Assembly (NCBI GenBank): GCA_964530825.1
Contig: CAZHCA010000008.1
Location: forward strand, 27,229 to 91,228
Origin: an uncultured Saprospiraceae bacterium
GTDB lineage: Bacteria > Bacteroidota > Bacteroidia > Chitinophagales > Saprospiraceae
DNA length: 64,000 nucleotides
Reading direction: 5' to 3'
Under the pieces are notes generated by a model that searched no databases, was not told where the DNA came from, and saw only the letters and a list, made by a program, of their open reading frames with translations. Both the position numbers and the translations under genes were made by a program. This document shows, in pieces, positions 7,146-26,809 of this stretch; position 1 is the stretch's first letter, and every line of letters starts with the position of its first letter.

Positions 7146-7539
7146 CACCCCCTTCTAACTCGTTTTTCTAACTTATTGATTATCAGCACATAAGCAAATT
7201 GTTTACTTTCAAAATGTGTTCAATTTAGGGGGTCTTACTTTCAAAAGGGAGAGGGTTCAATCCCAGACGAAAAACCTCCTATTTTCCTGATTACCAGTCA
7301 ATAACAAAGACCTTTATGCATCTCACCAAACAATTCCTGTAAAAATGGAGTCCGACTAAGCTTTTTGCAATTCCTCGATTCCAGTCGCCAATGTGTTTTA
7401 ATGTGTTATTTGGTGTTTTGCTGAGGAATATTGAAATTCTCCGGTATATACAAGAAATACTGCTTAGGGCCATCATCGCCGAAAAGCTCCTATCCCTACG
7501 GGGAAGGGGCGTCGACTTTATTTACCCACCAAACCCACC

Positions 7540-7758
7540 TTATGATCCTCCCTTGACCAAATTTACCGTGCCCCCAGGATGATTGTAGGTGTAGCGGTAC
7601 GCCTGGAAGACTCCCGTACCCAACTGCCAGGTAATGGCCCCAATATTACCGTTATATTGCGGGATTAAGCCGCTGATGGCGCAATACTGCCGAATCAGGT
7701 GTTCCTGCTGCCTGTCGATGGTCTGGAAAAAAGGAAGTACATCAAAGCTATTGTTCAC
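7540..7758 (-). pseudogene. Possible N-terminal fragment of an AbiEii/nucleotidyltransferase toxin (truncated after ~72 codons)
   Basis: GTG start. ...DRQQEHLIRQYCAISGLIPQ...VNLVKGGS* resembles the start of DUF1814/AbiEii proteins (...GlxPQ...LKGG...), then stops. No remainder downstream. Confidence 0.35.
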
Positions 7759-7804
7759 TTATTTTATTTGTTCACGAATCGTGAACATCGTATATTTGTG
7801 AACA
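7752..7804. promoter_or_regulatory. Symmetric operator-like array in a divergent promoter: TGTTCAC-N10-TGTTCACGA-A-TCGTGAACA-N10-GTGAACA
   Basis: Half-sites at 7752-7758, 7769-7775, 7781-7787 and 7798-7804. The central 19 bp is a perfect palindrome. Lies between the start codons at 7758 (-) and 7818 (+). Confidence 0.6.
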
Positions 7805-7817
7805 ACCATGTTACGAA

Positions 7818-8786: not shown

Positions 8787-8847
8787 AGAACTATACCCCT
8801 CACGAAGTGGTTTGGGCTTTGCCCAGCCACTTCCAGCGAGTATAAGT

Positions 8848-8908
8848 ATGAAGCCAGCGGTTAGAGGTCAGAAGTAACTGACCTGTCTTCTCTGGCTTCA
8901 TTTTTTTT
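8848..8908 (+). terminator. Intrinsic terminator (compound hairpin + T8)
   Basis: ATGAAGCCAG (8848-8857) pairs with CTGGCTTCAT (8892-8901). Inner stem AGGTCAG/CTGACCT. Followed by TTTTTTTT. Confidence 0.6.
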
Positions 8909-8974
8909 GGCGAAAGCCGTATACCAATTCCAGGTGAAATTTATCGGGGTTTACGTCAAACTTTTGACCTCCCA

Positions 8975-10132: not shown

Positions 10133-10345
10133 AAATTATTATACTATTTTAAGATTATGATCTTTTCTTATTAGTAGATAACGACGTAAACGACCACAAC
10201 CTTCTGATGGTACAGAATAGCAACACTTCCCTCTGAGTATTTTCTTCCCAAGAATCTACGACCTTCAGTTTTTGTTACCATAGTATAAAGACACCTCAAC
10301 AATCGTCGCTTTATGTCCGCTGAAGATCGTCTGGTTCTTAATTAA

Positions 10346-10567
10346 ATGGCAATACTCCGCCATTTGCTTAGCGAAGAGGCCTTCGAGGACCTGCTGGGAA
10401 AAATGAAAACACTCGGAGAAACGTGCTTGCAAATTTTGTTGGATTCCGAGTACTGGGGATATTCCTCCGACGAGATTGCCCAGCGTATCGGTTACCGCAA
10501 CGTCCTGGAACAACACGCCCAGGAACTGCTGCGCCGCCAATCGCAACAACGACAACCCGACGAATAG
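10346..10567 (+). pseudogene. Possible sigma-70 region-4-like HTH fragment (gene remnant)
   Basis: LGETCLQILLDSEYWGYSSDEIAQRIGYRN resembles the ECF sigma region 4 (LPxxCRxIFxLSxxEGLSxxEIAxxLG). No region 2, and a stop lies immediately upstream of the ATG. Confidence 0.3.
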
Positions 10568-10721
10568 TAACAACAACATAGGGTTTCGGCTTTCCCTCTC
10601 TGTGGAGTAGGAACAAATGTTAAAAGTTAGCTTTAATATAGATTACGAAGTTCAAATGAGGTATAATCGATGTGTTCCACTCCACAGAGTAAACAGTTTA
10701 ACCTGTGAAATAACATAGCCT

Positions 10722-10985
10722 ATGGATGAAGGTTTTTATTTCGTATACGTGTTGTATAGTGAGAAAGATGGTCGTTTTTATACAGGGTATACCTCTGACC
10801 TTAGTCAACGAATAGAGGCGCATCAGGCAGGAAAGGTCACATCAACTAAGTACAGGCTCCCTCTGGTACTGGTCTATTATGAAGCCTGTTTGCACCAACA
10901 GGATGCTACTCACAGAGAACAGTATCTGAAAACGACCTATGGAAAACGCTACTTGAGGAATCGACTTAAAAGATACTTGGAATGA
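10722..10985 (+). CDS. GIY-YIG nuclease family protein (small stand-alone type)
   Basis: FYFVYVLYSEKDGRFYTGYTSDLSQRIEAHQAGK... Confidence 0.85.
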   Translation: MDEGFYFVYVLYSEKDGRFYTGYTSDLSQRIEAHQAGKVTSTKYRLPLVLVYYEACLHQQDATHREQYLKTTYGKRYLRNRLKRYLE

Positions 10986-11168
10986 ATATTTCACAGGTCT
11001 CACTGGAAAGCCGGATGGCTACTATTGAACAGATGTCTGTACTGTCCCGTATGGGCAAAAAGCAGCCACAACCTGCCCGAATCAGTGGGGCTAGTAATCC
11101 CAGGTCGGTGAACGTCCTGCTGATTCAACCCCTGCGTTGGAGGGATGCTTTCGGAAAAAGAGTGTCCT

Positions 11169-12080
11169 CTACACCCACACCAACTTCCCCCCACTCAGCT
11201 CTTCCTCCCCATCAAAGCGATACGCCGTGAGGACGCCGCCTTTGGCGACGCTGTAGTCGAGACAACAGGCATTGGCTGTGAGCAGCTGGGGACGGCCCTG
11301 CAGCCAGTAATAACCAAAGAAGGCCGACCGCTCGGTGGGCCTATAATGACTGGCGTCTGCCCCGGCGAAAGAGAGATGATCAAGCCCCAGATCGGGCACC
11401 ACACTCATCGCCTGGAACGACTGCTCGGACGGATTCACCCACCACTTGGTGCGGATCTCCCGGCGCTCGTGACCATCTTTGTCGTGGAAGCTGTAGCCCT
11501 CGGGTAGGGGGACTTCTTTCCCCTTACAGGCCACCTCCACCGATTTGTACAGTCGGCTGCCTTTTTCCGCTGCTGCCGGCAGCAGCTCGGCGGGGATGGT
11601 GGCATTGGGCAGTACTTCCCGCAGATGGTTGATGACCTCCACGTCCCAGCAGGCGTGTACCGCCCGCAGATGGGGCGTCTCCAGGTAGAGGGGCAACGTC
11701 TTGAACCATTCGATGGCCGAGGCATAGTCGCCCTGACGGCTACCGTACTGCTCCAGGGTAGCCGCGTGCTGATGGATGTTCTTCCTGGTGTGCGGACGCA
11801 GATACCCGCCTCCTTCCCAGGGTGTATTAAAACAGATGGCATTGAATTCGTGGTTGCCGCACAAAGCTACCGCACTCCCGGCATCGACCATGGCCCGCAC
11901 CAGCTCCACCACCCGCAGACTATCCGGACCCCGATCAATATAATCACCCACAAAGACTACCTGCCGCTCCGGATGCCGGTAGGCACCGGCTCGCCGTGCG
12001 TAGCCCAGCTTGCGCAGCAGGGCTTCCAGGCGGCCGGCGTGGCCGTGGATGTCGCCGATGAGGTCGAGGAGGGGTGTCAT
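11169..12080 (-). CDS. Metallophosphoesterase (PrpE/ApaH-like Ser/Thr phosphatase or diadenosine tetraphosphatase family)
   Basis: Motifs GDIHGH, GDYIDRGPDS, GNHE. Confidence 0.8.
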   Translation of the reverse strand: MTPLLDLIGDIHGHAGRLEALLRKLGYARRAGAYRHPERQVVFVGDYIDRGPDSLRVVELVRAMVDAGSAVALCGNHEFNAICFNTPWEGGGYLRPHTRKNIHQHAATLEQYGSRQGDYASAIEWFKTLPLYLETPHLRAVHACWDVEVINHLREVLPNATIPAELLPAAAEKGSRLYKSVEVACKGKEVPLPEGYSFHDKDGHERREIRTKWWVNPSEQSFQAMSVVPDLGLDHLSFAGADASHYRPTERSAFFGYYWLQGRPQLLTANACCLDYSVAKGGVLTAYRFDGEEELSGGKLVWV

Positions 12081-12112: not shown

Positions 12113-13999
12113 TTAGTCTTCAACTTCTTCTACAAAGTGGTGTAACCCCCAGATAGACTCACATATAGTCTGATATAGTTGTTGACGATTAACGACATCC
12201 TGCTTTTTAAAGTTCTTATGCGGCTCAAAGGGTAATCCCAGCCTTTCTTTCATCTTGATAAAGTTGGGATTATTCCGATAGGTTAGTTCACAGAGCGTTT
12301 GAGCCAACAAGTTTTCCTTGATGTAGTGTTCCAGCTTTTCATCATAAGGCTTGGCACTAAACGATTGATTTGTTCCTCTCGGAAGCAAGATCAAAGCACC
12401 TAAACGGTTTCGATATTCTTGAAAGTCGGTTTCTTGCTCGAATTCATCCCTGTGCTCCAAGAATTTATCGGCCCAGATATGCTCCACCTCAAAGGGCTTG
12501 CCACCGGGGTTAGAGAAGTATTTCTCAAAACTGGAATTCAATCCCGTTTCACGCTCAACATAACCCGTCATACGGGCCAGCAAGAATTTTACAAACCGCC
12601 TATTTTGCCCATGCAGCCTAAAGCGTTGTATCCCACTCCAGTCTTCCTCCATTTCGGCCAGTTTTTTATAGAGAATATCCTTTAAGGTCCGCAAATCTTT
12701 TCGCCTAATTTCTTTAACCAGGGTATACATGGTGTAGCGAATTGAACTGGAGGCGAACTTGCGGAAGTTGACGGAGCGCCTTACCACAAACGTTTCGATG
12801 AACCGCGCGACCGCATTCATTTTCTGAAAAATGACCTGATCATGGTCTTCTTTTCGGAGAGGAGACACAAGTAGTGGGTAACTTAATGAGTTGGCGATAC
12901 CCCAGCGCTTGATATAATACACATGCTCTAAGCCTCCGATCAGCTCTTTTTCTGCCCTGAGAATGGATAGGTATGCTTTTAGAAAGAACTTGAAGTCCTC
13001 GTCAATAAATCTTTGAAAATCCCCACTTTTTTCGGAATCCAGAGGGATTTTAAGCAGGTTTTCCCGAAACCAATTGTGGAAGCGGGTACCTATTTTCTCG
13101 AAGTCCTCATTCTTAGAGCCAGCTCGTCCAGGACGAATAGTCTCCGCATACTGTGCTCTCAGCCAGGCCTGAATAAAGCGTTGATCCTCATCTTTATCGT
13201 AAGCATGAAGTTTTTGCATGGAGCGTTTCCAAAGTTCATTGGCCTTTTGTCTCTTTTGATCTTCGCCAAATCTGGATAGGATGAATCCTTTCAGCATTTC
13301 GGTAGGAGTCAGGTTTAACCCCCGATCATTCATCGTTTCAAAAATGGTATAGGCATTTTCATCAGAATAAGCCATAATCTCTACCAATATCACATTGTAC
13401 TTCAACCAATCTATAAAGTATGGTAATGTTTCGCTTTTGATTTCTTCTGGAAAAGCGTTTTCGATGTCTACATAACGGGCTGCCATGTTTTTAGTAGACT
13501 CATCATCATATTCGGTTACTTCATAGTCCCCTTCTTTGAATAAAGCTTCCAGACAGGGCGTTCGCTCTTCTACTTGAATATTAAAGGACTTCTTGCCAAA
13601 TTTCTCAGAGAAGATGTAGGACTCTAACTTCTCTTCGTGCCCCAACTTCTTTTGCAAGTTGTTCAAGTAAATGAGTAGAAGTGTAAGTGATGTAAGACGC
13701 TGCTGACCATCAATAATACTCCGCTGACCATTCTTAACACTAACGACAAATGGCCCTAAATAGTAAGAATTATAGTTCTCAATCTCCGGCCTTTCGTGCT
13801 CCTCTTTATACTCATTTAAGAATGAAGAGGTGAGGTCTGAGACCAACTGCTCAATATGTCGTTCTTCCCATTTATACTCACGCTGAAAGAAATCGACCGT
13901 ATATTTTTTATCATCCAAAACCTCAGCAATAGATCGGTCGTGGGCCTCAATTTTGTTGGTTAGTTTGCTCATACAATGACTTAGCTGAATTTTTTCCAT
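12113..13999 (-). CDS. DUF262 (ParB-like NTPase) + DUF1524 (His-Me finger) protein, GmrSD/BrxU-like type IV restriction nuclease
   Basis: FFQREYKWEERHIEQLVSDL and IIDGQQRLTSLTLLL (the DGQQR motif). C-terminal FEVEHIWADKF. Start set at the ATG at 13999; the ORF is open to 14122 but would overlap the upstream gene. About 40% GC. Confidence 0.8.
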   Translation of the reverse strand: MEKIQLSHCMSKLTNKIEAHDRSIAEVLDDKKYTVDFFQREYKWEERHIEQLVSDLTSSFLNEYKEEHERPEIENYNSYYLGPFVVSVKNGQRSIIDGQQRLTSLTLLLIYLNNLQKKLGHEEKLESYIFSEKFGKKSFNIQVEERTPCLEALFKEGDYEVTEYDDESTKNMAARYVDIENAFPEEIKSETLPYFIDWLKYNVILVEIMAYSDENAYTIFETMNDRGLNLTPTEMLKGFILSRFGEDQKRQKANELWKRSMQKLHAYDKDEDQRFIQAWLRAQYAETIRPGRAGSKNEDFEKIGTRFHNWFRENLLKIPLDSEKSGDFQRFIDEDFKFFLKAYLSILRAEKELIGGLEHVYYIKRWGIANSLSYPLLVSPLRKEDHDQVIFQKMNAVARFIETFVVRRSVNFRKFASSSIRYTMYTLVKEIRRKDLRTLKDILYKKLAEMEEDWSGIQRFRLHGQNRRFVKFLLARMTGYVERETGLNSSFEKYFSNPGGKPFEVEHIWADKFLEHRDEFEQETDFQEYRNRLGALILLPRGTNQSFSAKPYDEKLEHYIKENLLAQTLCELTYRNNPNFIKMKERLGLPFEPHKNFKKQDVVNRQQLYQTICESIWGLHHFVEEVED

Positions 14000-14081
14000 T
14001 AAAAACGGTTCTATACCGGCAATGAGGAGGTTTGGAGGCCCATACCACTTCGTGAGCGGTATAATAACCTGAGATTCCTCC

Positions 14082-16775
14082 TCACCACCCCTTCCCCAAC
14101 AACTCCCGTACATCGACCTCATTCAATACCTCCTGGTACGATTCAAAATCGGTAGCATCAATGCGGTCGTAGCGAATCTCAAAGGCACTGCGGGTCTCAA
14201 CCTGCCGAATGCGCTCCTGTGCTTTCTCTTTCTCTCCCAGGGCGACGTCCACCCAGACGTCTTGCAAGATGTCCGGTATTTGCCCGAAGATGCTGAAGAT
14301 ATTTTCCAACCGATCACTCAGCAATTCATGGACCCGGTCTTCTACCGTACCCCGGTAGCGCATGTTGTAGACCTTGACAGTATCTAACCGCTGCCCGATG
14401 CGTTGAATGCGGCCTTTGCGCTGCTCCAGGCGGGTCGGATTCCACGGTAAGTCTAAATTGATGAGGGTGCCGAGGCGCTGTAGGTTGAGGCCCTCACTGG
14501 CACTGTCGGTGCCAAAGAGGATACGGATGTCATCGGATTGTACCGCTCGCTTGATCGTTTCTTTTTCTACCCGCTGATACCGGCCCTTTAGCCAAACACC
14601 TGATTTACCGGAGCCCGCGTATACCCCAATCTTCTTATCGGGATGTGCCCGGGCTACCCGCTCGGCAAAGTAGTGGACTGTATCGTAATATTGGCTGAAG
14701 ATGATGCACCCCAGATCAGCCCAGCCGCTCTGAAAAAGAAGTTCGTTGAGTCGTTCCAGCTTGGGATCGGCATCGGTGTATTCGTCCAATTGCCGGATCA
14801 GGCGTTGCAGGATCTCTTCCTGCTCCGGACCGATCCGGGCGGCAATACCGGTAGGGGCTTCTTCTACCACATCGTCTTCTTCCTCTTCCTCCATCCATTC
14901 TGGATCGTGGCCCAGCATTTTGATCGCCGTTTTGCGGCCGGCTTCCATACTACTGCCAATGCGGCGCAACAGCAGGGTTTTGATAAATCCAGCCCCCTTC
15001 ATGACTTCTCCCAGAGACGTACTAAACTCTTCCGCCGTGTGGTAGGCATCTTCCAGATACCCCTTCAAAGGAATGGCATCTTTGGGCGCTTCGCCGTACA
15101 GAACTACTTCGACCTTTTTCAGGAAAGGCTCTCCGGTTTCTTCATTGATGGTTTCTTCCAGAAATTTGCGGGTGCGGCGGACAATATGACGCACATAAGG
15201 ATTGTACTTCTCGAACAGCCCATCTTCCCGCTCAATCGACCGTTTATAGCCGGGATTGAGCCGATCGACTGTTTCGGGCTTCAGTACAAAATCGCGTGGA
15301 GTCATCTCCAGGGCCCGCCGAATGCGTCCAAATAAGCGGTCGTTTTCATAAGCCGGTGGAAACGGGTGGCGCAGCCATTCCCACAGGCGGTGTTTGTCTT
15401 GAAAGGTGCGTGCGGTGCCATCGACCAGCTTGAAGCTTGTTTCTTTGGATTGGGTACGCCACCAGGAAAAGTCATTCCCCAGTACATGGGGAGCTCCTGC
15501 ACCTAAGACACACAGCAGGTCGTAGGCCTCGATCGGATATAATTGTACCGGTGTAGCCGTTCCCAACATCATGCTTTTGGTGCGGGGAGATAGCTGCAGC
15601 AGAAAGGCCATCATATTATTGGGCTCAGCGGGCTCCTCCTGTCCGTTTTCCTTCAGGTTCCTTCGTCTTGATCGGTGAGCCTCATCCACGATGACACATT
15701 CGTATTCTTTTTCCAGTAAACGCTGCACGACGTCCGAACCCCGAATTACTAATCCCTGACTAATGATACCAAAGCGGCGTGGACATTTGAGAATAGCTTT
15801 CTTTGGATTGTTATTTTCGTGTACGTGGCCGGTTTCATCGATCCAGGTGTTCTTATCCCAAACTGCCGAAGGTAGTCCCAGTAGCTTCAGGAGTTCATCT
15901 TGCCACTGATAGACTAGCGTTTTAGGCGCAATGACCAGGACCGGCTTATCGCTTTGCAAGGCCATGAGCATAGCCGCCATAGCTAATTGGACCGTTTTGC
16001 CCAGGCCCACCTGATCGGCTAAGACAAAGCGGGCCCCTCTCCCACAGCGATGTTCTTCATAGGCTAGCTTGACAAAAAATTTCTGGTGACCCCACAAACC
16101 AAAATGCTCCCGGTAAATGGGATTTTCTACTACCGCCGCTTCGGGTTCCGGCTTTTCCCGCCATTTATCCAGGGGGACTACTTTGCGCCCACTCAAACGC
16201 TTGATATCCGTGATAATCGCCTCAGAGAGCGAACAGGCACGGGCGTCATTCCACAGCGTATCAAACTCTTCCTGCACCCAGGTGACCGCTTCTGGCGAAG
16301 GGTCTTCCCAGATCAGCTCGTAGTTCAACTGCCAGCCCGATTTGCTCTCGTTGGCACTGCCTAAAAAAGCCGTTTGACTGCCATCTTCGAATGTTAACAC
16401 CCCGGCCTTGCCGTGGACCAGCCCAAAGGCTTGATCGGGCAGCACGCGGATTTCCAGCTTTTCAGAAACGAGTAATTGATATAAACGAGATAGGCGCTCC
16501 TGCAGACCGTCGTTATAGCGTTGGTCGATTTCTTTTTTCCACTCCTGCGTCAATGCCAGGTGGGCAGCCTTGGCTGTTTGCACATCGAGCGGATCGAGGG
16601 ACGAATTGGCAACCATGCGTACCTTTCCCGGCATCTGGGCGATAGCCTCTCCCGCAATCTCCAGCATGGAGGAACTGAAGTAACCCGCGATACGGTCGTA
16701 TCGTACAGCCTTTTCCAACCGGTCCCGAAAAAAATGCTTGCCTAATGATTGCCGACGGGAGGAGTAGCGTTGCAT
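14082..16775 (-). CDS. PLD-nuclease-domain / SNF2-family helicase fusion
   Basis: N-terminal single HKD motif (LVHGKAGVLTF...FLGSANESKSGW). Helicase motifs DQVGLGKT, VIVDEAHRSR, MLGTATPVQ and LNLQ...DLPWNPTRLEQRKGRIQRIGQ. Confidence 0.9.
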   Translation of the reverse strand: MQRYSSRRQSLGKHFFRDRLEKAVRYDRIAGYFSSSMLEIAGEAIAQMPGKVRMVANSSLDPLDVQTAKAAHLALTQEWKKEIDQRYNDGLQERLSRLYQLLVSEKLEIRVLPDQAFGLVHGKAGVLTFEDGSQTAFLGSANESKSGWQLNYELIWEDPSPEAVTWVQEEFDTLWNDARACSLSEAIITDIKRLSGRKVVPLDKWREKPEPEAAVVENPIYREHFGLWGHQKFFVKLAYEEHRCGRGARFVLADQVGLGKTVQLAMAAMLMALQSDKPVLVIAPKTLVYQWQDELLKLLGLPSAVWDKNTWIDETGHVHENNNPKKAILKCPRRFGIISQGLVIRGSDVVQRLLEKEYECVIVDEAHRSRRRNLKENGQEEPAEPNNMMAFLLQLSPRTKSMMLGTATPVQLYPIEAYDLLCVLGAGAPHVLGNDFSWWRTQSKETSFKLVDGTARTFQDKHRLWEWLRHPFPPAYENDRLFGRIRRALEMTPRDFVLKPETVDRLNPGYKRSIEREDGLFEKYNPYVRHIVRRTRKFLEETINEETGEPFLKKVEVVLYGEAPKDAIPLKGYLEDAYHTAEEFSTSLGEVMKGAGFIKTLLLRRIGSSMEAGRKTAIKMLGHDPEWMEEEEEDDVVEEAPTGIAARIGPEQEEILQRLIRQLDEYTDADPKLERLNELLFQSGWADLGCIIFSQYYDTVHYFAERVARAHPDKKIGVYAGSGKSGVWLKGRYQRVEKETIKRAVQSDDIRILFGTDSASEGLNLQRLGTLINLDLPWNPTRLEQRKGRIQRIGQRLDTVKVYNMRYRGTVEDRVHELLSDRLENIFSIFGQIPDILQDVWVDVALGEKEKAQERIRQVETRSAFEIRYDRIDATDFESYQEVLNEVDVRELLGKGW

Positions 16776-16787
16776 GGGGATTAGGGT

Positions 16788-17282
16788 TTATTCTTCCACT
16801 CGAGGGCTTTGCTCCAATATTTTATACGGACTGACTACTGGCAGCAATACACTGCGAAATAAGGTCCCCTGAAGGCGTTCTAAGATAATTCCGCGGGAAG
16901 TAGAATACGCAATACCAATCATTGTTGCAGCCAAGTGCTGGTCTATCATGGGATTTTCTTCCTTATCGTACTGTACGAAATCAGAAAAGTTATCCATGTG
17001 AAAATGAAATTCGATCCCGTATTCGGCTTCTAATCCAATCTCTTCCTGTGTATCTTTTTCTAGTGCAACCAACTTAAAAAAAAGTCTGATACGGGTTAAA
17101 CCAGCTTCAAGGTTGTGCGCAATCTCTCGCTCAACCCCCATATTGAAATTAGCCGGGGCATCTACATCCAATACGGGCTTTTCTAACAATTCTGGAGCTG
17201 TTTCCAAACTGCCCTGAAATACATTGATACTGAATAAATGGATCTTATTGGGATCGATAGTCGGCCTCTTGCGCTTACTCAT
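16788..17282 (-). CDS. SecB-like chaperone candidate (third gene of a TAC-type module)
   Basis: 164 aa, SecB-sized. The by-eye strand/helix pattern parallels E. coli SecB: IHLFSINVF~FQIQRIYTK, TRIRLFFKLVA~YEVVLRVTVTA, LEAEYGIEFHF~LCEVQQGGIFSI, LAATMIGIAYSTSRGIILERL...LLPVVSP~[21 protein letters not shown]...NLAPVNF. ATGA overlap with the upstream HTH gene. Confidence 0.45.
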   Translation of the reverse strand: MSKRKRPTIDPNKIHLFSINVFQGSLETAPELLEKPVLDVDAPANFNMGVEREIAHNLEAGLTRIRLFFKLVALEKDTQEEIGLEAEYGIEFHFHMDNFSDFVQYDKEENPMIDQHLAATMIGIAYSTSRGIILERLQGTLFRSVLLPVVSPYKILEQSPRVEE

Positions 17283-17701
17283 GCGACGCTGATTTTAAGC
17301 TGAGAAGAGCGCTTCCCCTTATCTGAGGCAACTTCGCCCGTTGAATATTTAAGGTCTTTATGGCTTAGCTTATTCTGGACAGCGTGGTACCGCATGGTCG
17401 CAAAATGAACCTTGCTATAGGTACGACGTGCCTTCTGTGGTGTCATAATAATATCTTCCTCCAGTATAGCTTCCATTTTGGCAATACTGCGCAATGTGAG
17501 GTTGTGCGAACCACTGAGCCATTTACTAATTTCAGCACTAGTTTTTCCCAGCTTTTTGGCCAGGTCACTCTGTGTCCATCCTTTTTCCTTCAACAAAGCA
17601 AAAACTTGCTGAGAAATATCCAGGTTTTTATCCACAAAGCGTTCTACATCTGCCGGGCCTGGCTCGGCGAAAAACTGCTCAATGCTTTCGTACTTTTTCA
17701 T
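17279..17701 (-). CDS. XRE-family HTH protein (HigA-like antitoxin candidate) with a ~55-aa C-terminal tail
   Basis: HTH LKEKGWTQSDLAKKLGKTSAEISKWLSGSHNLTLRSIAKMEAIL. Tail ...RRTYSKVHFATMRYHAVQNKL.... ATGA overlaps at both ends. Confidence 0.75.
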   Translation of the reverse strand: MKKYESIEQFFAEPGPADVERFVDKNLDISQQVFALLKEKGWTQSDLAKKLGKTSAEISKWLSGSHNLTLRSIAKMEAILEEDIIMTPQKARRTYSKVHFATMRYHAVQNKLSHKDLKYSTGEVASDKGKRSSQLKISVA

Positions 17702-18201
17702 AGATAGATTGGTAATTCTGGATCGTAAACCAATAAATCAGTTTCCGGATCCAATGAAATGTCTTTATCGTATTGTGCTTGGCTAATAGCCTTGGTTAGT
17801 TTGTTGGCTAGACGGAAATGACTCGAAACATTAGGACAATCTTGTGCAGAATTGGCTGTTTTTTCTGCTCCATCAAATAAAATAACGGCCGATCGACTCA
17901 TCCACATACAATACAATCGAAGAGAACAATCCATGTTCAGGTACCTGGCCGGGGGTGGAAAAGCTTTAGCCTCTCCATCACCGGCACCTTCTACACGAAA
18001 ATATCGGCGATCCGCTCCAATTTCATTTCCGAGCTTCTGCAGCCATTTTCTGATTACAAATAATTCTTCTCTGTATTCCTCCTGACTATGTTTTTGTATG
18101 AAGTTTAAAAACATAGAAACGGGTTCGCCATCAAACTGGACCGAATAATACGTGATCCGCTTGAATTGAATTGCTTTCGTTATGTAGACAAAATTACTCA
18201 C
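17698..18201 (-). CDS. Putative toxin (RelE/HigB/Gp49-like core) upstream of the XRE gene
   Basis: GTG start. ...RYFRVEG...AFPPP...LRLYCMWMSRSAVILFDGAEKT resembles the remembered Gp49/HigB-like 'LRLYCxRxxxxxxILxxGGxK' core. Toxin-first order as in higBA. Confidence 0.45.
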   Translation of the reverse strand: MSNFVYITKAIQFKRITYYSVQFDGEPVSMFLNFIQKHSQEEYREELFVIRKWLQKLGNEIGADRRYFRVEGAGDGEAKAFPPPARYLNMDCSLRLYCMWMSRSAVILFDGAEKTANSAQDCPNVSSHFRLANKLTKAISQAQYDKDISLDPETDLLVYDPELPIYL

Positions 18202-18236
18202 TTATAAGTTCATTTCAAAGCTTTTTAACTTAAAAG

Positions 18237-21212
18237 TTAACCCACCGCATCGTTCTCCACGTACCCGCGCAGCAACTTCGCGGCTTCCACATCCTTGCTC
18301 CAGTGGGGGATGCTCTCCGTTTTCTTGATCATATAGCCCAGGATGGCCAGAATGAGCGACCGGCTGTTCCAGTAGTCGGGCCACTCGTGGTAGAGCCAGT
18401 TGCGGCCCTCTACCGGGTCTTCGGTGCGGTGTACTTCGTGGATGGCGAAGAGGATCTGACGGGTGAGGCTGCCGCCAAAATCCTCCCCGCTCAGGTCTTT
18501 GTTTTTGTACTCGATGGGGGTGATCAGCCGGGTGTGGTTGGCTTTTACCTTCAGCAGGTGGCGGTACTCTCGCAGGCCGTAGCCCCGGGCCATTTCCGTG
18601 TAGACGCCGCTGCGGTACTCGCCGCCCTGCTCTACTTCCAGCCCCTTGAGGTAGAAGCGCTCAAGGGGACTGAGCTTGCGCCATTCCGCTTCCGCAAAAC
18701 CGTTGGGCACCAGGGCGTCCATGGCGACGCGCACGGCGGAGTCGATGATCTTCACGATCTCGCTTTCGTCGCCGCTCTGCCGCTCTTTGCTGAGCTCGTA
18801 CTCGACATCGATCTCGCCCAGACGCTTGTACTTGGTGAGCTCGCGTAGGGCCGCTGCGTAGGCCGCCAGCTGATAGTCGGCATCGCCGAAGTTGGGGTCG
18901 TCTTTATCGTCGATCTGCTGCATGAAGGCGATCTGCTCCTTCACGCCGTACTCCACGTCCATTTGTACATCCGAGAGGAAGCCGATCTCCTCGGAGTCTT
19001 GCTTGCGCAGCACCATGATCACGGTGCCCTGCACGTAGTTGCCTTTTTTGATGCCCCCGGCATCGGTCTCGGTCTGTATGGTCCAGGCGGCGGTGACGCG
19101 CAGGCCCGAGGCCCAGAGGATGAGCGCCAGGTCGGCCCAGACCGCCGAGTCCTGATGGGTGAACATCACCACCTGCGCCCCGGCATCGGGCATGTGCCGG
19201 GTGAGGTTGCGGTACACCTCCACCATGGAGCGATTGAAGGATTGGCCCTTGCCTTTGACGGCCAGGGCGGACTTGCTGTTGGTGTGCCATTCCGGGAAGA
19301 GTTGTTCGAGGTGTTTTTGATGCCACGCTAGAAAAAAGTCTCCTAATTCATGATAATTAATGGCGTCGGCGTAGGGTGGATCAGTTATCCAGAAAGAACA
19401 TTCAAAATTAACACTTCTTGCATCTAATGTTCTTAATTTAAAGTTTGCATCAAATTTATTATCAGAAGGAACATTAAATAGGAAATTTTCCTCCATTGCT
19501 TTAAAGCCTTTGGCAGGAGGATTGAAAATTGTATTTAGGGCTTGATTCGAAAAAGTATCTCCAGTAGAACCTATACCGCCTGATCTTGACATTGTAGCCC
19601 GCCACCTGATTAATCTAGAATTTAAATTCGCCAAGTTTCCAAGTGAAAGAAGAGAGGCTATTTTTCCATTTGTCTTACTTTTTTCAAGTCTCTCAGAAAT
19701 TGATCCTAGGTAAAATAGTTGCCTAGGATTAAACAAATGATGCCAGTAGGTCCAGCCGCGCTCGCGTATGGGCTGTTCGGTATTGTATCCTCTGGGAATT
19801 TTAGTCGAAGGGATGTAGCCTTTCTCCTGCCATTCGGCAAAGCGTTCCTGCAGCAGCGCCAACACCTGCGCTTCCCGGGCCAGGTCTTCGGAATTAGGCG
19901 CGATATAGTGGCGTTGGGTTTTCTTTTTGATGGCTTTGCGGTCCAGCTTGTCTTGAAAATCCGGCCAGGCCTCGGCTTCCGCTTGTGTCCAGGTGATCTC
20001 TGGATTGTTGGCGTCCTCGTACCAGGTTTCCAGGTAGCGAATGCAGTAGAGGCGCTCCTGAAAGGTATCGTCGGGCCGGGGCACGAGGTCCTCGTTTTCC
20101 CACATGCGCAAGCCATAGCGGGTTTCGCCCTCCACCCGCCGGTCGCCCCGGATGGTGGAGATGTTGTGCTCGGTGTCCGTTTCCGGACAGACCAGGCGGC
20201 CGTTTTGCACCGTACCCGTTTTAGCGGCAGCGAAGGTGGCCGCATCGGCCCCTTCGATGATGTCAATATGGTAGCGCTGATTAGCGTGGTCGGGACGCAG
20301 CACGGCACAGACTTTATATTTTTCCGAGATCACCCAGCTGGGCGCCAGGGGCACCCAATAGCCGGTGGCCGGACTTTTGGCCTCCACGCAGTACAGGTAA
20401 GCATCGGCCCGCCAGCCAGCTTCATTGTGCTCGATGCCCCAGGCGGTGATTTGCTGATCCACGGCCTCGAATACTTCTCGTTGGGCTTCCTCAATCTCGG
20501 CTTTCACCTCCGGGCCGCCGCCCACAATATTGATCGAGGCCCAGGTAAGCAGGGCCGCTACCGGGTTGAGGTCACTGCCGTAGGCCTGACAGCCCAGGCG
20601 AGCCGCCTCAAAGGGAATGGAGCCGCCCCCACAGAAGGCGTCGCCTACCCGCGGAGTATGGCCAAATTGTTGCTGGCCCATCTGTTCGACCCATTCGGTC
20701 AGGCTGTTTGCCGTGGTGCCGCAGTGGGCATTGATCACCTCCCAGGATGCCGGCGAAGGCCCTTCGATCTGCTCGGGACGGTCGCAGAGGCGCAGCTTTT
20801 CGTCGTACGACAGGCGCTCGAAAGCCAGTTCCTGGACCTCCGCCTTCTGCTCGCGCGACAGCTCATTTTGCCAGGCCCAGCTTCCTTTGGCGTTTTCCGT
20901 AAGGTATTGAGCACGCTCTCCATCGGTCAATTGTGCCGCCAGGTCCTTGGCGGAAAGATTCTTACTGCGGCGGCGGCGCAGGCCCTCTTCGTCCATGGTC
21001 ATCAGGCGCAAAAAGACCTCCTGATCTTTGTCGGGATCATCGGTAGCCGGCAGCAGGAGGCCGATAAGGGTCGCCCGCACCAGCACCAGCGGCTTGCGCC
21101 CCCACCACTTGCCCAGGCCGGTCAGGGTCTGACCAGAACCGGCTTTACGCTCCTTATAGCTTTCCTTGGAGACCTTGGAGACCGGAAACTGTTGTTCAAT
21201 AAAAGCGGGCAT
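18237..21212 (-). CDS. DUF1156-domain DNA methyltransferase (COG1743-type N6A/N4C MTase)
   Basis: N-terminus FIEQQFPVSKVSKESYKERKAGSGQTLTGLGKWWGRKPL is the DUF1156 hallmark. SAM motif I DAFCGGGSIPFEAARLG and catalytic motif IV DPPYADAINY. Confidence 0.9.
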   Translation of the reverse strand: MPAFIEQQFPVSKVSKESYKERKAGSGQTLTGLGKWWGRKPLVLVRATLIGLLLPATDDPDKDQEVFLRLMTMDEEGLRRRRSKNLSAKDLAAQLTDGERAQYLTENAKGSWAWQNELSREQKAEVQELAFERLSYDEKLRLCDRPEQIEGPSPASWEVINAHCGTTANSLTEWVEQMGQQQFGHTPRVGDAFCGGGSIPFEAARLGCQAYGSDLNPVAALLTWASINIVGGGPEVKAEIEEAQREVFEAVDQQITAWGIEHNEAGWRADAYLYCVEAKSPATGYWVPLAPSWVISEKYKVCAVLRPDHANQRYHIDIIEGADAATFAAAKTGTVQNGRLVCPETDTEHNISTIRGDRRVEGETRYGLRMWENEDLVPRPDDTFQERLYCIRYLETWYEDANNPEITWTQAEAEAWPDFQDKLDRKAIKKKTQRHYIAPNSEDLAREAQVLALLQERFAEWQEKGYIPSTKIPRGYNTEQPIRERGWTYWHHLFNPRQLFYLGSISERLEKSKTNGKIASLLSLGNLANLNSRLIRWRATMSRSGGIGSTGDTFSNQALNTIFNPPAKGFKAMEENFLFNVPSDNKFDANFKLRTLDARSVNFECSFWITDPPYADAINYHELGDFFLAWHQKHLEQLFPEWHTNSKSALAVKGKGQSFNRSMVEVYRNLTRHMPDAGAQVVMFTHQDSAVWADLALILWASGLRVTAAWTIQTETDAGGIKKGNYVQGTVIMVLRKQDSEEIGFLSDVQMDVEYGVKEQIAFMQQIDDKDDPNFGDADYQLAAYAAALRELTKYKRLGEIDVEYELSKERQSGDESEIVKIIDSAVRVAMDALVPNGFAEAEWRKLSPLERFYLKGLEVEQGGEYRSGVYTEMARGYGLREYRHLLKVKANHTRLITPIEYKNKDLSGEDFGGSLTRQILFAIHEVHRTEDPVEGRNWLYHEWPDYWNSRSLILAILGYMIKKTESIPHWSKDVEAAKLLRGYVENDAVG

Positions 21213-21218
21213 GGGGTA

Positions 21219-21911
21219 TTATTTTTTAGCGGGGTAATCGTTTTCTTCTTCAAAAAGCAGAAGTTTTTCCTCGTCGAGCAGGGCCTGCGTGTAGGTACCT
21301 TCCGGGATGGGGTTCTCGGTGAGGGCAAAGCGCAGGGCTTTGCGCCAGCCGCGGCCACGGCCGTTCTCCGGATGGCCGGTGGCGGCATTGGTGATGGTAT
21401 AGAGCCACCACCGCTCTTCGGGGCGCAGGCCCAGCCAGTTTTCCACGGCCTGATTGGCACGGTTGGGGTCGGCCTCTTCCATGGCCCACAGCAGCACCAT
21501 CAGTTCCTTGCCGAAGAGGCGATGCACATAATTGAGCCCCTGCTTCCAGGATACGCTTTTTTTAGTCGCCTTGGAGGCCCGCAGGCGTTGGTTGAACTCA
21601 CTGCGCAGGTAGCGTTCCAGCAGGTCCCAGCGGGTGCGACTGAGGCGCACCTTGCCGGTATAGCCGGGTCCCAGGAAACGCATTTGCAGTCCCTCCACCG
21701 TCATCTCCGGGTCGTACTGATACAGCTCGTGTACCGTCACCTCCTGTTTTTTGGAGCGCGGAATCACCACCACAAAGTGGTGCTCACTTTGGGCCGGTAC
21801 AAAGCCGAAGTCGATCAGCTGCTTATGCTTCGATGCGTTGCTCAATATCTTGTGGTTTGTATTCCAGATTGGTATCGCGTACAAAATCGAGAAAGTTTTG
21901 GCCGCTGGCAA
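21219..21911 (-). CDS. DUF3780-like small protein of the DUF499/DUF1156 module (start uncertain)
   Basis: Sits between the DUF499 and DUF1156 genes, as remembered for this module. The conserved-looking start region is LIDFGFVPAQSEHHFVVVIP. The ATG at 21911 overlaps the upstream gene by 89 nt, and an alternative TTG lies at 21845. Confidence 0.5.
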   Translation of the reverse strand: MPAAKTFSILYAIPIWNTNHKILSNASKHKQLIDFGFVPAQSEHHFVVVIPRSKKQEVTVHELYQYDPEMTVEGLQMRFLGPGYTGKVRLSRTRWDLLERYLRSEFNQRLRASKATKKSVSWKQGLNYVHRLFGKELMVLLWAMEEADPNRANQAVENWLGLRPEERWWLYTITNAATGHPENGRGRGWRKALRFALTENPIPEGTYTQALLDEEKLLLFEEENDYPAKK

Positions 21912-24900
21912 ATTGGAGGCGGGAAAGCGCCAGGCTCAGCTCGCCAGTATGCAAAAGCTTATCCCAGACGAAATTCACAGCTTCCTCTATTTGTGCAGCT
22001 GTATATTTCACGGCTCCGTCCACTTCCATAGTCAGCCATTGATCACCATCTACATTGATCGCCAGTCCATAGCCTTCCACCTCATGCTTTTCGAGTTGCT
22101 TCAGGAATTGAAAGGTTTCGGCCGTGGTGGTCATGGCTGTGCGTTTTTTATAGGTCAGCGGAATCACCGGATTGATTTCCTTATTGGGGTTTGCTCCCCG
22201 GTTCGGCAGGTCGAACTGCTTGATATCCGACAAAAGGTCATCCTTTTTCGCTGCGGCGAGGATTTTGGTTTTGGGTTCCGCTACAAAAGAAGCTTCGTAA
22301 ACAGCGCCGTATTCCAGGGGTTCGCTCCCATCGGTAGAATAGTAAATATCGGTATTGCGCGGAGCCACGGTAAACTCGACGCGAAAAGCATCACCCTGCG
22401 GATAAAAATCGTATTTCAGGTCGATGGTATTTTGCCAGACTACCGGATCGCCTACTTCGTGCTCGCCCTCGGGGTCCACACAAAGGAAAGACACGTAGAG
22501 CTCATCGGTAACTAGGTCCTTCTTGGTATCCCATTGAGGATCATTGGTAGTCACCTTTTGGCCGTAGGCGTAGTGGACGATGGCGCCACGTACCGGTTGG
22601 ATGCGCAGGCGCATTTTGCCGGTATCGGTATCGCGTCCCATTTCCTGTACCCGCACACTGGTGGGAGGCTTGGGAAAAGGTCCGATCTTGATCCAGTTCC
22701 CATCCTCGCGCCAGTGGTCTTTGGTGACTTGTTCGCGCTTCACCTGCTGCAGTGCGTTGGGTTTGTGCCACACCCAGGCGGTATCGGTAGCCGCTGATTC
22801 GACCACTTCGTTCCAGGGCCGCTCTTTCTGCCCCTGAAACAGTTTTTGCTCCAGCTGCTGCAAAAAAGAGTCCTTTTCGATCTCGGTAGTAAACTTGCGT
22901 TTATCGATCATCGCCTGCCGGATCTGTTCTTCTCCGTCAAATTTATTCTGTATGTACTGCAGGTTGATGTTTGAGTCCATCAATCCCCGCCTGGTTGGAA
23001 AAGTCAGCTTGGTAAAGATATTGGTCGTCGCCGAATAGAAGCGAAAGCGGTAGGTACTGAGCAGCTCCTCTACTTCCTGGTATTGAGGGTCGTTGGTAGG
23101 CACTTTGTCGCTCTCAAATTCGGCCTTGACATCCTGCGCTGCCCGAATACTTTTGGCATTATCAAATACCGTATCGATCGATTGCTGATCGCCGGTCAGG
23201 AAAAACACGCGGTTTTTGTAGCGTAGGTTGTCGTACCAGGCCTGGAGCTCCGGGTGCAGTCCGCCCTGGGCATAGGGCTGGAAGATAACGAGGGAGACGG
23301 TATCTTTTTCCACGTCAATTTCATCCAGGGCGGGCAACACATACAGGCGCTGATAGAGGTCTTTCATTTTGGGCTCAAAAAGCTCTTGCAGCAGGGTGCG
23401 CATTTCTTTCCGGATCGCCTCCGGATTGTATCCTTTGCGGTAGCTATTCACTTTGGCCGATACGTTGGCTACATCCTTGTAGAGCAGGGCACCGCTTTTG
23501 TCCACGTGCAGGTACCAGGAGCGTTCGCGCAAGGCCGGGATGACGGCGGTCTTCAGCTGCGTGATATCCACCCCCGGGGCAGCCAGCATAGCGGTGATCT
23601 CATTCATTTTGAGGCCCTTCAGTCCGCCCTGCACCATACTGAGGGAAGACATAAAGAGGAGCCTGGCCGCTTTGACGGGTAGATCAGTCTGCAGCTCTTC
23701 TGCGATCTTTTCCGCCGCCGCATCCCCTCCGGAGGCGATGTCATTCGAGATGGCATTAATGAGCTTATTATTGATCTCGTTGAGCTGGGCATTGACGCTA
23801 TCGTCGTTCGGGTCGATATCGTATGGGTGGATCAGGTAGCTCCGGTCGGCCCAGCCGTGTTGGGGATCAAACATGCGGGCCGTAATAGCCCGCATCAGGC
23901 GGATAAGGCCCCGCGTCTGCATAAAGCCGGGATTTTCCTTAAAGCGAGCGTAGAGTTCCCGCATAGCCGGGTGGAAAGGATAGCTTTCGCGAATGGCGGC
24001 TTCGATTTGCCGGGGCGATTCGTTCGTCAGCTCCATCTTTGCTGCCTGCTCCACCTCTTTGCTGTAGGCGGCGGCCGTCTCTTTTATCACTTCTTCCGGT
24101 ACTTCCTCCGTAAAGAGGCGCTTGCGCAAAATGTGGTAGATCTCATTTGTATTTTGCCGTACCGGGGTAAAGTTTTTCGCAACACGTTTAGTCTCTTTCT
24201 CAAAATCACCAAGCAACTGATCGATCTGCCCTGACCCTTTGGCGTAGGCATTCTGCAGATCGGAAATGACTAGCGCTACGTTGGAAAGTTCCTCTTTACC
24301 GATGGCGTTCAGTAAGGTCGTCAGGGCACGGGCCGTTTTGTCGGCCAGGGTACCGAGGCCACTTTGCACCGTAGCCGAATAATTGAGGTAATCGGGCAGC
24401 TCATCCAGGAGAATGAGCGTGGGCTCTCCTTGCAGCAGCCGAATCCAATCGGATTGGCCGGGTGGTTCGCCCTCCTTATTGAGTTCCTGGAAGACGTCCT
24501 TCTTGCCGATGCTGTCGGCGATAAAGGTCCAGATACCATTCTTGGGTTTTTCTCGTCCGGAAAAAGCAACGACCCGCGCTGATCCACGAAAGGAAGTATC
24601 GTACACCGCACTCATGACCGGCTTGCGGTATTCCGGGAATTTGGCCAGCAGCCCCACCGCGATCATGCTGTGGGTTTTACCCCCACCCATCGCCTGGGTT
24701 AGCTTAAAGACACCATCATCCATGGAGCCCTCCATGCGGCGAAATACGCTGGTGTAGAGCTGTTCCATGCCTTTAGTGATGTAGTTTTCGGCGAAGAAGC
24801 GATCTGGATCGATTTTGTCCTCATTCAGGTCGGTAAGATCGAGGACCACGTCTTTATAGCTTTGGTCAAACACCGACTGCCGCGGTGTAAGCAAGGAGCT

Positions 24901-24912
24901 GAGGTTTTGCAT
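21823..24912 (-). CDS. DUF499-family P-loop ATPase (COG1483)
   Basis: Walker A AMGGGKTHSM, Walker B PTLILLDELPDY. About 1030 aa, as typical for DUF499 proteins adjacent to DUF1156 methylases. Confidence 0.85.
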   Translation of the reverse strand: MQNLSSLLTPRQSVFDQSYKDVVLDLTDLNEDKIDPDRFFAENYITKGMEQLYTSVFRRMEGSMDDGVFKLTQAMGGGKTHSMIAVGLLAKFPEYRKPVMSAVYDTSFRGSARVVAFSGREKPKNGIWTFIADSIGKKDVFQELNKEGEPPGQSDWIRLLQGEPTLILLDELPDYLNYSATVQSGLGTLADKTARALTTLLNAIGKEELSNVALVISDLQNAYAKGSGQIDQLLGDFEKETKRVAKNFTPVRQNTNEIYHILRKRLFTEEVPEEVIKETAAAYSKEVEQAAKMELTNESPRQIEAAIRESYPFHPAMRELYARFKENPGFMQTRGLIRLMRAITARMFDPQHGWADRSYLIHPYDIDPNDDSVNAQLNEINNKLINAISNDIASGGDAAAEKIAEELQTDLPVKAARLLFMSSLSMVQGGLKGLKMNEITAMLAAPGVDITQLKTAVIPALRERSWYLHVDKSGALLYKDVANVSAKVNSYRKGYNPEAIRKEMRTLLQELFEPKMKDLYQRLYVLPALDEIDVEKDTVSLVIFQPYAQGGLHPELQAWYDNLRYKNRVFFLTGDQQSIDTVFDNAKSIRAAQDVKAEFESDKVPTNDPQYQEVEELLSTYRFRFYSATTNIFTKLTFPTRRGLMDSNINLQYIQNKFDGEEQIRQAMIDKRKFTTEIEKDSFLQQLEQKLFQGQKERPWNEVVESAATDTAWVWHKPNALQQVKREQVTKDHWREDGNWIKIGPFPKPPTSVRVQEMGRDTDTGKMRLRIQPVRGAIVHYAYGQKVTTNDPQWDTKKDLVTDELYVSFLCVDPEGEHEVGDPVVWQNTIDLKYDFYPQGDAFRVEFTVAPRNTDIYYSTDGSEPLEYGAVYEASFVAEPKTKILAAAKKDDLLSDIKQFDLPNRGANPNKEINPVIPLTYKKRTAMTTTAETFQFLKQLEKHEVEGYGLAINVDGDQWLTMEVDGAVKYTAAQIEEAVNFVWDKLLHTGELSLALSRLQFASGQNFLDFVRDTNLEYKPQDIEQRIEA

Positions 24913-26185: not shown

Positions 26186-26809
26186 TTAATCCACATACAA
26201 CTCTCCCAGCGTAATCGTTCCGTAAGGCAAAGCCAGTTGATCGCTTTTGTCCGTATAGATGCCCTCCAGCCACAGGCCATCTTCCCGGCGGTGAAAATGG
26301 AAGACCTTGACGTTGTCCGTTTCCAGGTAGATGATGTGCTGCAGGCTGGGGATCTGCTTGTAGCAAGGCAGTTTCTCGCCAAAGTCCCTTATGCGGGTGC
26401 TGGGCGAGAGGACTTCGAAGAGCAACACAGGGGTGCGTTCCGCATCCATACCCGGTTGGAATTCGTAAGGGTCGAGGGGCAACTGCAGCACAGAACCATC
26501 GGGGATGAAGATGGCGTTGTCGCAGGCCGCTATGCAGATGGGTCGGTTGCTGGTTCCGAAGCGATAGGGCTTATTGCGAAACATCGTTTTCAATTGGAAT
26601 ATCATCTCGCTTACTAATTCAGAGTGGAGCGCATTTTCGTATCCCATAGTCGCAACGATTTCCCCGTTGGCGTACTCTGCCTTGTAGGCCGCATGTTGCA
26701 GCAACGCCCAGTACTGCGCTTCCGAGGCTTCGAAGCGCACGGGGGCTTCACGGGCGCCCAGCTCGAGGAGTTCCTGGTCGGTAGTAGGCAGCTTGGCTAT
26801 ATCGGGCAT
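26186..26809 (-). CDS. Uma2-family (DUF820) endonuclease
   Basis: ...YKAEYANGEIV...HSELVSEM...PDGSVL...PVLLFEVLSPST...KLPCYKQIPSLQHIIYLE... is the typical Uma2 PD-(D/E)xK layout. Confidence 0.75.
   Translation of the reverse strand: MPDIAKLPTTDQELLELGAREAPVRFEASEAQYWALLQHAAYKAEYANGEIVATMGYENALHSELVSEMIFQLKTMFRNKPYRFGTSNRPICIAACDNAIFIPDGSVLQLPLDPYEFQPGMDAERTPVLLFEVLSPSTRIRDFGEKLPCYKQIPSLQHIIYLETDNVKVFHFHRREDGLWLEGIYTDKSDQLALPYGTITLGELYVD

Follow-up and report, generated by a model that had tools for sequence, protein, structure and literature searches.

Among the systems described so far, the closest to the locus considered here is MANTIS, the name given in a September 2026 preprint to the system previously known as Gao_RL or Gao_29 (bioRxiv 10.64898/2026.09.23.753747). 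In the Pseudomonas representative, the methyltransferase MtsC is loaded by MtsA on 6-bp sites that are asymmetric and MtsB stimulates hemimethylation, while restriction requires the four proteins together with both ATPase activities and acts best on inverted pairs of unmodified sites; MtsD resembles the helicase-phospholipase D (PLD) nuclease SauUSI, and a swap of the target-recognition domain alters the specificity of the system (10.64898/2026.09.23.753747). Among the BREX-related systems, type 2 is defined by a standalone DUF3780 protein and by a helicase with an HKD nuclease at its N-terminus, often together with FnIII-like domains on the ATPase, while Hma represents type 1 (PMC12839542). 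On the type 2 helicase, the HKD/PLD nuclease stands in for a TUDOR domain. Here we describe an eight-gene locus that combines a core of this kind with a three-gene cassette and a GmrSD-like nuclease gene, located on the minus strand of a 64,000-nt stretch (the window) of contig CAZHCA010000008.1 from an uncultured Saprospiraceae bacterium. The locus is probably a unidirectional stack of three autonomous immunity modules, namely MANTIS, a HigBAC-like toxin-antitoxin-chaperone (TAC) cassette and GmrSD.

The two additional modules also have described counterparts. That defence modules can lie embedded within methylation-based systems is already on record (Payne 2024; Rakesh & Krishnan 2026), and both PDC-M64 and HEC-06 were catalogued from such embedding (bioRxiv 10.1101/2024.01.29.577857). 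In particular, the definition of PDC-M64 is that of a cassette lying within BREX, DISARM or type I restriction-modification (R-M) loci, whereas HEC-06 is a GmrSD-like gene first found in Hma loci, 62.7% of which contain embedded defence genes; HEC-06 protects Escherichia coli, and mutagenesis has shown that its DGQQR and E-H residues are required (bioRxiv 10.1101/2024.01.29.577857). As to TAC systems, their chaperone senses phage structural proteins in the known cases, and all those characterized outside Mycobacterium act in phage defence. The tail of the antitoxin HigA1 of Mycobacterium tuberculosis ends in Val-Ala, a ClpXP degron, and that of CmdA in Ala-Ala (TAC literature).

The eight co-directional open reading frames (ORFs) are all present at the coordinates given in the initial annotation, and the following spacers and overlaps are as it had reported. 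The DUF3780 and methyltransferase genes are separated by 6 nt, the methyltransferase and the first cassette gene by 35 nt, and the last cassette gene and the helicase gene by 12 nt, while two 4-nt ATGA overlaps occur within the three-gene insert. A terminator scan found no minus-strand terminator-like site between the genes of the array, which makes co-transcription plausible, if unproven.

The profile and motif evidence identifies the four-gene core as MANTIS, that is Gao_RL/Gao_29 or the DUF499-centred BREX-related type 2. The first gene, mtsA (21823-24912, 1029 aa), encodes a DUF499 AAA+ ATPase with Walker A GGGKTH at residue 76, Walker B LILLDELP at residue 166 and an Fn3-like region at about residues 844-899; it matches DUF499 (1e-25) and Fn3_assoc in Pfam, and the PADLOC DUF499 model over its full length (1.8e-193). 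It is followed by mtsB (21219-21911), encoding a standalone DUF3780 protein (Pfam DUF3780, 9.6e-47), and by mtsC (18237-21212, 991 aa), whose product is a DUF1156 N6-adenine DNA methyltransferase with FCGGGS at residue 193 and DPPY at residue 611 (Pfam DUF1156; PADLOC DUF1156_MTase, 1.4e-282; NCBIfam DUF1156_antiphage, 1343 bits, over the 1000-bit cut-off). The fourth gene, mtsD (14082-16775, 897 aa), encodes a PLD(HKD)-SNF2/SF2 helicase-nuclease with PLDc_2 (residues 19-175), SNF2-rel_dom and Helicase_C domains in Pfam and with HGK at residue 121, GSAN at residue 139 and DEAH at residue 364; its scores are 5.5e-240 with PADLOC PLD_Helicase and 1214.6 bits with NCBIfam phospholipD_antiphage, over the 1100-bit cut-off. 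The catalytic motifs of the core proteins are thus intact, the PADLOC DUF499, DUF3780, DUF1156_MTase and PLD_Helicase models give full-length matches (1e-43 to 1e-282), and the NCBIfam "anti-phage-associated" models name all four proteins, two of which pass the equivalog cut-off. The domain assignments of the initial annotation (DUF499, DUF3780, DUF1156, PLD-SNF2 and DUF262/DUF1524) were upheld by the Pfam, NCBIfam and PADLOC searches, and every motif that it had quoted was found.

The same annotation had tentatively assigned the core to Hma and had considered its mechanism uncharacterized. The first view is rejected, since DUF3780 is present, the PLD domain is N-terminal and the Hma models score weakly (1e-27 to 1e-40, where the type 2 models reach 1e-193 to 1e-282). 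A standalone DUF3780 and a helicase with N-terminal PLD indicate BREX-related type 2, whose defining sequence features are all present, including an AAA+ ATPase of the DUF499 family in which both Walker motifs (A and B) are intact and an N-terminal HKD/PLD on the helicase. Hma shares with the locus homologous ATPase, methyltransferase and helicase cores and the frequent carriage of embedded defence genes, but it is without DUF3780 and its helicase has a C-terminal restriction-endonuclease domain of the DUF3883 type in place of the N-terminal PLD. The second view has been overtaken by the mechanism now worked out for MANTIS (bioRxiv 10.64898/2026.09.23.753747).

The four core proteins of the locus are those of MANTIS as described, and their order is unchanged. 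Unlike MANTIS, it has a three-gene cassette that parts mtsC from mtsD, the gene of the Arc/CopG repressor MtsR was not seen at the locus, the usual start codon of mtsB is mutated, and MtsC has a putative recognition segment unlike that of even its close relatives. These relatives are four metagenomic contigs (L008-L011), in which MtsA, MtsB and MtsD are 90-96% identical to the window proteins and MtsC is 85% identical, with the same flanks. In the relatives, mtsB starts 7 nt past the DUF499 stop codon at a GTG or ATG; comparison with L008 shows that the corresponding codons of the window are CTG and ATC. Since these start codons are mutated, the start of mtsB in the window would be either an in-frame TTG further upstream, within mtsA (21845, 21884 or 21911, with an overlap of 23-89 nt), or a non-canonical CTG or ATC (21818 or 21815); a third option is that MtsB may be poorly expressed. 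The overlap between the DUF3780 and DUF499 genes proposed in the initial annotation therefore stands if one of the TTG codons is used, the start itself being uncertain. As for mtsC, a 326-nt stretch (19392-19717, minus strand) is its sole part that does not align to L008-L011 by blastn, the rest being 84-89% identical at the DNA level. This stretch has a guanine-plus-cytosine (GC) content of 33% inside a gene of about 60% and is probably a swapped target-recognition region, in which case the methylated motif would differ from that of the relatives.

The last gene of the array encodes, as judged from its domains and motifs, a GmrSD/HEC-06-like type IV restriction nuclease (longest ORF 12113-14122), in line with the initial annotation. 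It contains GmrSD_N (DUF262; Pfam, 3e-31) and GmrSD_C (DUF1524; 5e-10), with DGQQR at residue 138 and EVEH at residue 545, and its best PADLOC match is HEC-06 (1.6e-42). The profile alignments begin at about residue 51 of the longest ORF, so that the start is probably Met42 or Met51 (13999 or 13972), 82-109 nt past the helicase stop codon; of the two arrangements first offered, a gap of about 80 nt or an overlap, the gap is therefore the probable one. With HEC-06, BrxU and SspE of the GmrSD family the protein shares a DGQQR-containing DUF262 domain and a His-Me domain of the DUF1524 type that has the E-H residues, and in the BREX locus of pEFER the GmrSD-type gene brxU likewise lies beside a methylation-based system. 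It differs in that the best-scoring HEC-06 stretch covers only the N-terminal half, and in that the gene stands behind the final gene of MANTIS instead of lying among the core genes.

The relatives also reveal how the parts of the locus are joined. By blastn, L008-L011 and the window are 80-89% identical over mtsA, mtsB, most of mtsC, mtsD and a flanking metallophosphoesterase gene, and this homology is interrupted by three sharp breaks, at the 326 nt internal to mtsC, at the slot that separates mtsC from mtsD, and at the GmrSD gene. The breaks of the cassette slot fall at the mtsC stop and mtsD start codons. In the same slot the relatives have a Schlafen gene (SLFN_AlbA_2/HATPase_c_4) and a ParA/CbiA-like ATPase gene (e.g., L008:7794-9993), and 95 nt occupy the place of the GmrSD gene, which they lack. 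A shared backbone with different cargo and without GmrSD strongly supports the stepwise assembly suggested in the initial annotation, which had derived it from base composition. On that point, about 42% GC for both additional modules proved accurate (42.3% for the insert and 41.8% for the GmrSD gene, against 53-60% in the MANTIS core), whereas the conserved body of mtsC has about 60% rather than 64%. No direct or inverted repeats were found at the junctions of either insert, and there is thus no sign of transposition or site-specific integration; the simplest explanation would be that cargo is exchanged through homologous recombination in the mts genes, which are conserved.

A survey of 80 MANTIS loci from different species, in which gaps of more than 400 nt were counted at each junction, places this variation in cargo in a wider frame. 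Such gaps occur between mtsC and mtsD in 32 of 74 loci (43%), between mtsB and mtsC in 17 of 72, and between mtsA and mtsB in 6 of 70. The cargo between mtsC and mtsD is mostly co-directional and includes ABC ATPases with RloB, Schlafen, Fic, PIN, DUF4276, a canonical HigB-HigA pair, TacA-GNAT and VapBC-like genes and one GmrSD. As to GmrSD in the surveyed loci, a tblastn search located one GmrSD-like gene 2 kb downstream of mtsD and a Pfam search one GmrSD_N ORF in the mtsC-mtsD slot. In four loci (L076, L077, L082 and L143) a second slot, between mtsB and mtsC, contains 2-4 kb of co-directional cargo. What the analysis shows is the gene content, the predicted folds, the motifs, the putative operators, precise boundaries of insertion and the fact that each module also occurs independently, and the evidence points to three autonomous modules rather than one eight-protein machine.

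The three-gene insert is the least familiar of these modules. Its genes, tacT (17698-18201, 167 aa, GTG start), tacA (17279-17701, 140 aa) and tacC (16788-17282, 164 aa), match the PADLOC models PDC-M64A (5e-51), PDC-M64B (4e-40) and PDC-M64C (8e-40), respectively. AlphaFold2 models of the tacT and tacC products were built on family alignments, and their folds were compared by Foldseek. The tacC model (predicted local distance difference test score, pLDDT, 86.4) matches only SecB (1ozb, 1qyn, 1fx3) and Rv1957 of M. tuberculosis (5mtw), with E values of 8e-6 to 6e-5, a probability of 1.0 and target-normalized template modelling scores of 0.61-0.73. Nearly all top matches of the tacT model (pLDDT 92.5) are toxins of the RelE/ParE superfamily, namely Streptococcus pneumoniae HigB, YoeB, HigB2, BrnT and ParE. 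The putative antitoxin has an HTH_3 domain (Pfam, 3e-10) and, behind it, a tail some 55 residues long, which in an alignment of 39 homologues consists of a conserved aromatic/hydrophobic segment and a variable part. The C-terminus is VA in 11 homologues, AA in 10 and IA in 3, that is in 24 of 39, and the window protein ends in ISVA. The earlier reading of the insert as TAC-like is supported, with a predicted RelE/HigB fold for the first gene, a helix-turn-helix (HTH) protein for the second and a predicted SecB fold for the third.

The 35-nt "spacer" that follows mtsC would, from its palindromes, be the control region of the cassette, with two putative operators. The first, O1 (18225-18240), is the perfect palindrome TTAACTTTTAAGTTAA and overlaps the mtsC stop codon; the second, O2 (18197-18212), is the imperfect copy TGAACTTATAAGTGAG, 28 nt away, and extends over the GTG at which the toxin gene starts. 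The core ACTTnnAAGT occurs twice in the 64-kb window, both times at the cassette, and, of 29 other cassette loci, 21 have it upstream of the toxin gene, the background frequency being 0.15 per kb; where two cores are present, O1 and O2 are 28-30 nt apart in 7 of 9 loci. TAnnTTTG-like strings at the toxin start were considered as a Bacteroidota -7 promoter box and rejected, because they correspond to conserved Asn-x-Phe-Ala codons. In L157 the called toxin start (P0026, 181 aa) runs through the O1 palindrome (L157:8001-8060), and the resulting 17-residue N-terminal extension is thus probably an annotation artefact.

Several independent features hence support a TAC-like cassette, with toxicity and chaperone dependence as the expected properties. 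The comparison with HigBAC (Rv1955-1957 in M. tuberculosis, and E. coli NT1F31) is instructive in both directions. The toxin-antitoxin-chaperone order is the same in both, the cassette likewise combines a predicted RelE/HigB-type toxin fold with a predicted SecB chaperone fold, and its putative HTH antitoxin has a C-terminal extension that ends in Val-Ala, as in M. tuberculosis HigA1. Unlike HigBAC, the cassette has no detectable sequence similarity to the HigB, Gp49 and SecB Pfam families, its family is Bacteroidota-centred and unannotated, and its antitoxin tail has only about 55 residues. With PDC-M64 (Payne et al. 2024, "guilt-by-embedding") the likeness is that of a three-protein match and of embedding in BREX, DISARM-like and type I R-M loci; the difference is that PDC-M64 was listed as a candidate without function, and that the cassette lies here within a MANTIS locus, a system outside the survey of that study.

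By homology with the Pseudomonas system, MtsA would load MtsC on a short asymmetric site, MtsB would stimulate hemimethylation of host DNA, and the helicase-PLD nuclease MtsD would cut unmodified foreign DNA recognized by MtsABC. Between mtsC and mtsD, the TAC cassette appears inserted exactly from stop to start codon. Its RelE/HigB-fold toxin would be neutralized by the HTH antitoxin, whose unstable C-terminal tail would be shielded by the SecB-fold chaperone and which probably represses the cassette via the two palindromic operators. A phage protein that competes for the chaperone might then free the toxin and abort the infection, in analogy with E. coli HigBAC. GmrSD, in turn, may attack modified-base phage DNA that escapes MANTIS. 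The activities, the trigger of the cassette and any cooperation between the modules are accordingly matters of homology and analogy.

The cassette is widely distributed. A profile search with 32 members of the chaperone family retrieved at least 611 clusters, all unannotated, with the named ones from Bacteroidota; among the 120 matches listed, none has a Pfam domain, which leaves no sequence bridge to SecB. The chaperone gene had no phage match, and its single plasmid match is a Hymenobacter megaplasmid; in RefSeq, the three genes of a copy on a Hymenobacter plasmid bear the annotations hypothetical, HTH regulator and hypothetical. The gene order toxin-antitoxin-chaperone is constant across 50 non-redundant metagenomic copies (all of the approximately 45 with upstream sequence). 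The closest relative, with 67% toxin identity, lies in a type 1 BREX locus (BrxC-PglX-...-cassette), and in a type 3 BREX context the cassette stands between BrxC and PglXI. In other loci it adjoins DrmD or a type IIG/DrmMI-like methyltransferase gene, or follows a type I HsdR gene or, elsewhere, PDC-S68; further neighbours include ABC ATPase, TOTE and STAND genes as well as several non-defence genes, and stand-alone copies are also present. In all, about half of the informative loci are inside or beside defence genes, and seven of these are methylation-based. Two of the contexts show further genes around the cassette. In L037, a 748-aa fusion of PLD-like and asparagine-synthase domains (L037:1289-3535) overlaps the end of the cassette and is followed by several co-directional genes, a set that may be an uncharacterized DNA-modification or defence operon; in L055, a second, solitary antitoxin-like HTH gene (L055:6928-7179) is found about 2 kb upstream of a complete cassette.

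Some observations weigh against the reading of the locus as three working modules. In the core, the scores of mtsA with NCBIfam DUF499_antiphage (785 bits) and of mtsB with DUF3780_antiphage (151.7 bits) are under the cut-offs of 1200 and 200 bits, respectively, and the loss of the mtsB start codon may mean that MANTIS function is impaired in this genome. In the cassette, the fold match of tacT is statistically weak (best E 0.06, range 0.06-0.9, with probabilities of 0.96-0.98) and no catalytic residues of the toxin could be mapped. For both tacT and tacC, nothing meaningful was retrieved from Pfam (E up to 10), from NCBIfam, by phmmer against the PDB or by profile searches against the PDB. 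In particular, no sequence similarity between tacC and SecB was found by Pfam, by PDB profile search or by hhalign of the chaperone family against E. coli SecB, so that the link to SecB is one of predicted structure. With only 35 nt upstream, the cassette promoter may be incomplete at this site. Finally, the cassette was found in none of the 80 surveyed MANTIS loci, and just one of these loci has a GmrSD homologue close by, so that the combination gives no sign of having been selected as a unit.

The distribution of the cassette is also where alternative explanations of its role have to be weighed. It could be a selfish addiction module, retained because its loss is lethal to the cell, that stabilizes the island without any phage protection of its own, which we regard as unlikely but the best placed of the alternatives. 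Overlapping genes, an HTH antitoxin and putative autoregulatory operators are features of toxin-antitoxin (TA) modules of type II, the cassette occurs in many unrelated contexts, also beside integrases and recombinases, PDC-M64 is so far only a candidate, and Payne et al. discuss "genomic sink" and hitch-hiking ideas. Yet the loci in or near defence genes, about half of the informative ones, seven of them methylation-based, argue for a defensive role, as does the fact that the TAC systems characterized outside Mycobacterium all defend against phage; addiction and defence, moreover, are not mutually exclusive.

A second possibility, still less probable, is that the cassette is a guard wired to MANTIS that fires when a phage anti-restriction protein disables it, for which PrrC held in check by EcoprrI and PARIS sensing Ocr represent precedents. 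Such a role would fit the recurrence of the cassette inside systems based on methylation (BREX of types 1 and 3, DISARM-like loci, type I R-M and, in the window, MANTIS), and auxiliary and backup effectors of BREX-related systems have been described in the literature. However, complete and conserved copies of the cassette also exist in loci where such a system is not close by, the proteins of the host systems are not the same from one to the next, which makes a specific physical partnership unlikely, and known TAC chaperones sense phage structural proteins.

Slightly further down in probability, and doubtful in our view, the insert might not be a TA system at all, and instead comprise a small HTH regulator and two unrelated accessory proteins whose folds merely resemble RelE and SecB. 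The lack of a sequence-level link to any toxin or to SecB, the E value of 0.06 for the toxin fold and the annotation of the family only as "hypothetical" would all fit this view, but they have to be set against the coincidence of several hallmarks, namely the toxin-antitoxin-chaperone order, the 4-nt overlaps, a SecB fold with probability 1.0, RelE/ParE-type top fold matches, a degron-like antitoxin C-terminus and paired operators. That the eight genes together make up a single, integrated and extended restriction machinery, with the small proteins and GmrSD as subunits or regulators of MANTIS, is highly improbable, since against the co-directional genes, very short spacers and absence of predicted internal terminators stand L008-L011, which have different cargo and neither additional module, the 0 of 80 other MANTIS loci with the cassette, a Pseudomonas MANTIS that works with four proteins, and a GC content that marks both modules as foreign.

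A ninth co-directional gene, encoding a metallophosphoesterase (11169-12080, minus strand; Pfam Metallophos), follows the GmrSD gene and has a homologous flank in L008-L011. It was rejected as a further component of the system because it is absent next to MANTIS in the 80 other loci, and it is thus a local flank only. The first minus-strand terminator-like hairpin after the array, at 11160-11176, lies behind this gene, so that read-through from the defence genes into it is possible. The surroundings resemble a defence island (2-10985 and 26186-26809), with a pair of leucine-rich-repeat proteins (2-2908), Mrr (5046-5945), an AbiEi-like regulator for which an AbiEii partner is not obvious (7818-8786), a DUF4143 AAA ATPase (8975-10132), a GIY-YIG protein of small size (10722-10985) and a Uma2 endonuclease (26186-26809). 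Further on, amid housekeeping genes, a 703-aa protein combines a caspase (Peptidase_C14) domain and TPR repeats (33352-35463).

Considered as a whole, the locus is a modular composite of known parts and follows an already described pattern. The exact three-module combination was not seen elsewhere; to call the architecture undescribed, as the initial annotation did, was nevertheless an overstatement, given that embedding has been published and both additional modules were already catalogued. Since the core mechanism and the embedding phenomenon are both in the literature, current concepts remain unchanged. What appears to be new is the reading of PDC-M64 as a divergent Bacteroidota TAC with a conserved operator pair; indeed, SecB, HigB and chaperones are not mentioned in the searchable text and supplements of the BREX survey and the embedding paper. 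The precise swap of cargo between near-identical MANTIS backbones likewise appears undocumented. As a tentative proposal, to which we give somewhat less than an even chance, PDC-M64 would be an unrecognized, Bacteroidota-wide clade of SecB-chaperone-dependent, HigBA-like abortive-infection systems with its own conserved two-operator region, which lodges preferentially inside methylation-based operons (MANTIS, type 1 and type 3 BREX, DISARM-like, type I R-M) as a second line of defence for the case that these are evaded, with the interval between mtsC and mtsD serving as a cargo-exchange slot.

Collectively, these data provide an example of layered immunity, in which one module would be directed against unmodified DNA, one against modified DNA, and one would probably abort infection. 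The relatives that have different cargo in the same slot offer a ready comparison for asking whether embedding brings a functional benefit or reflects hitch-hiking. PDC-M64, for its part, gains a concrete and easily tested proposed mechanism, consisting of a toxin, a labile antitoxin, a SecB-like chaperone and two operators. SecB is presented in the TAC preprint as a chaperone of Pseudomonadota; if the proposal is true, the range of TAC systems would come to include the Bacteroidota, for which SecB has not been described in the role of a housekeeping chaperone.

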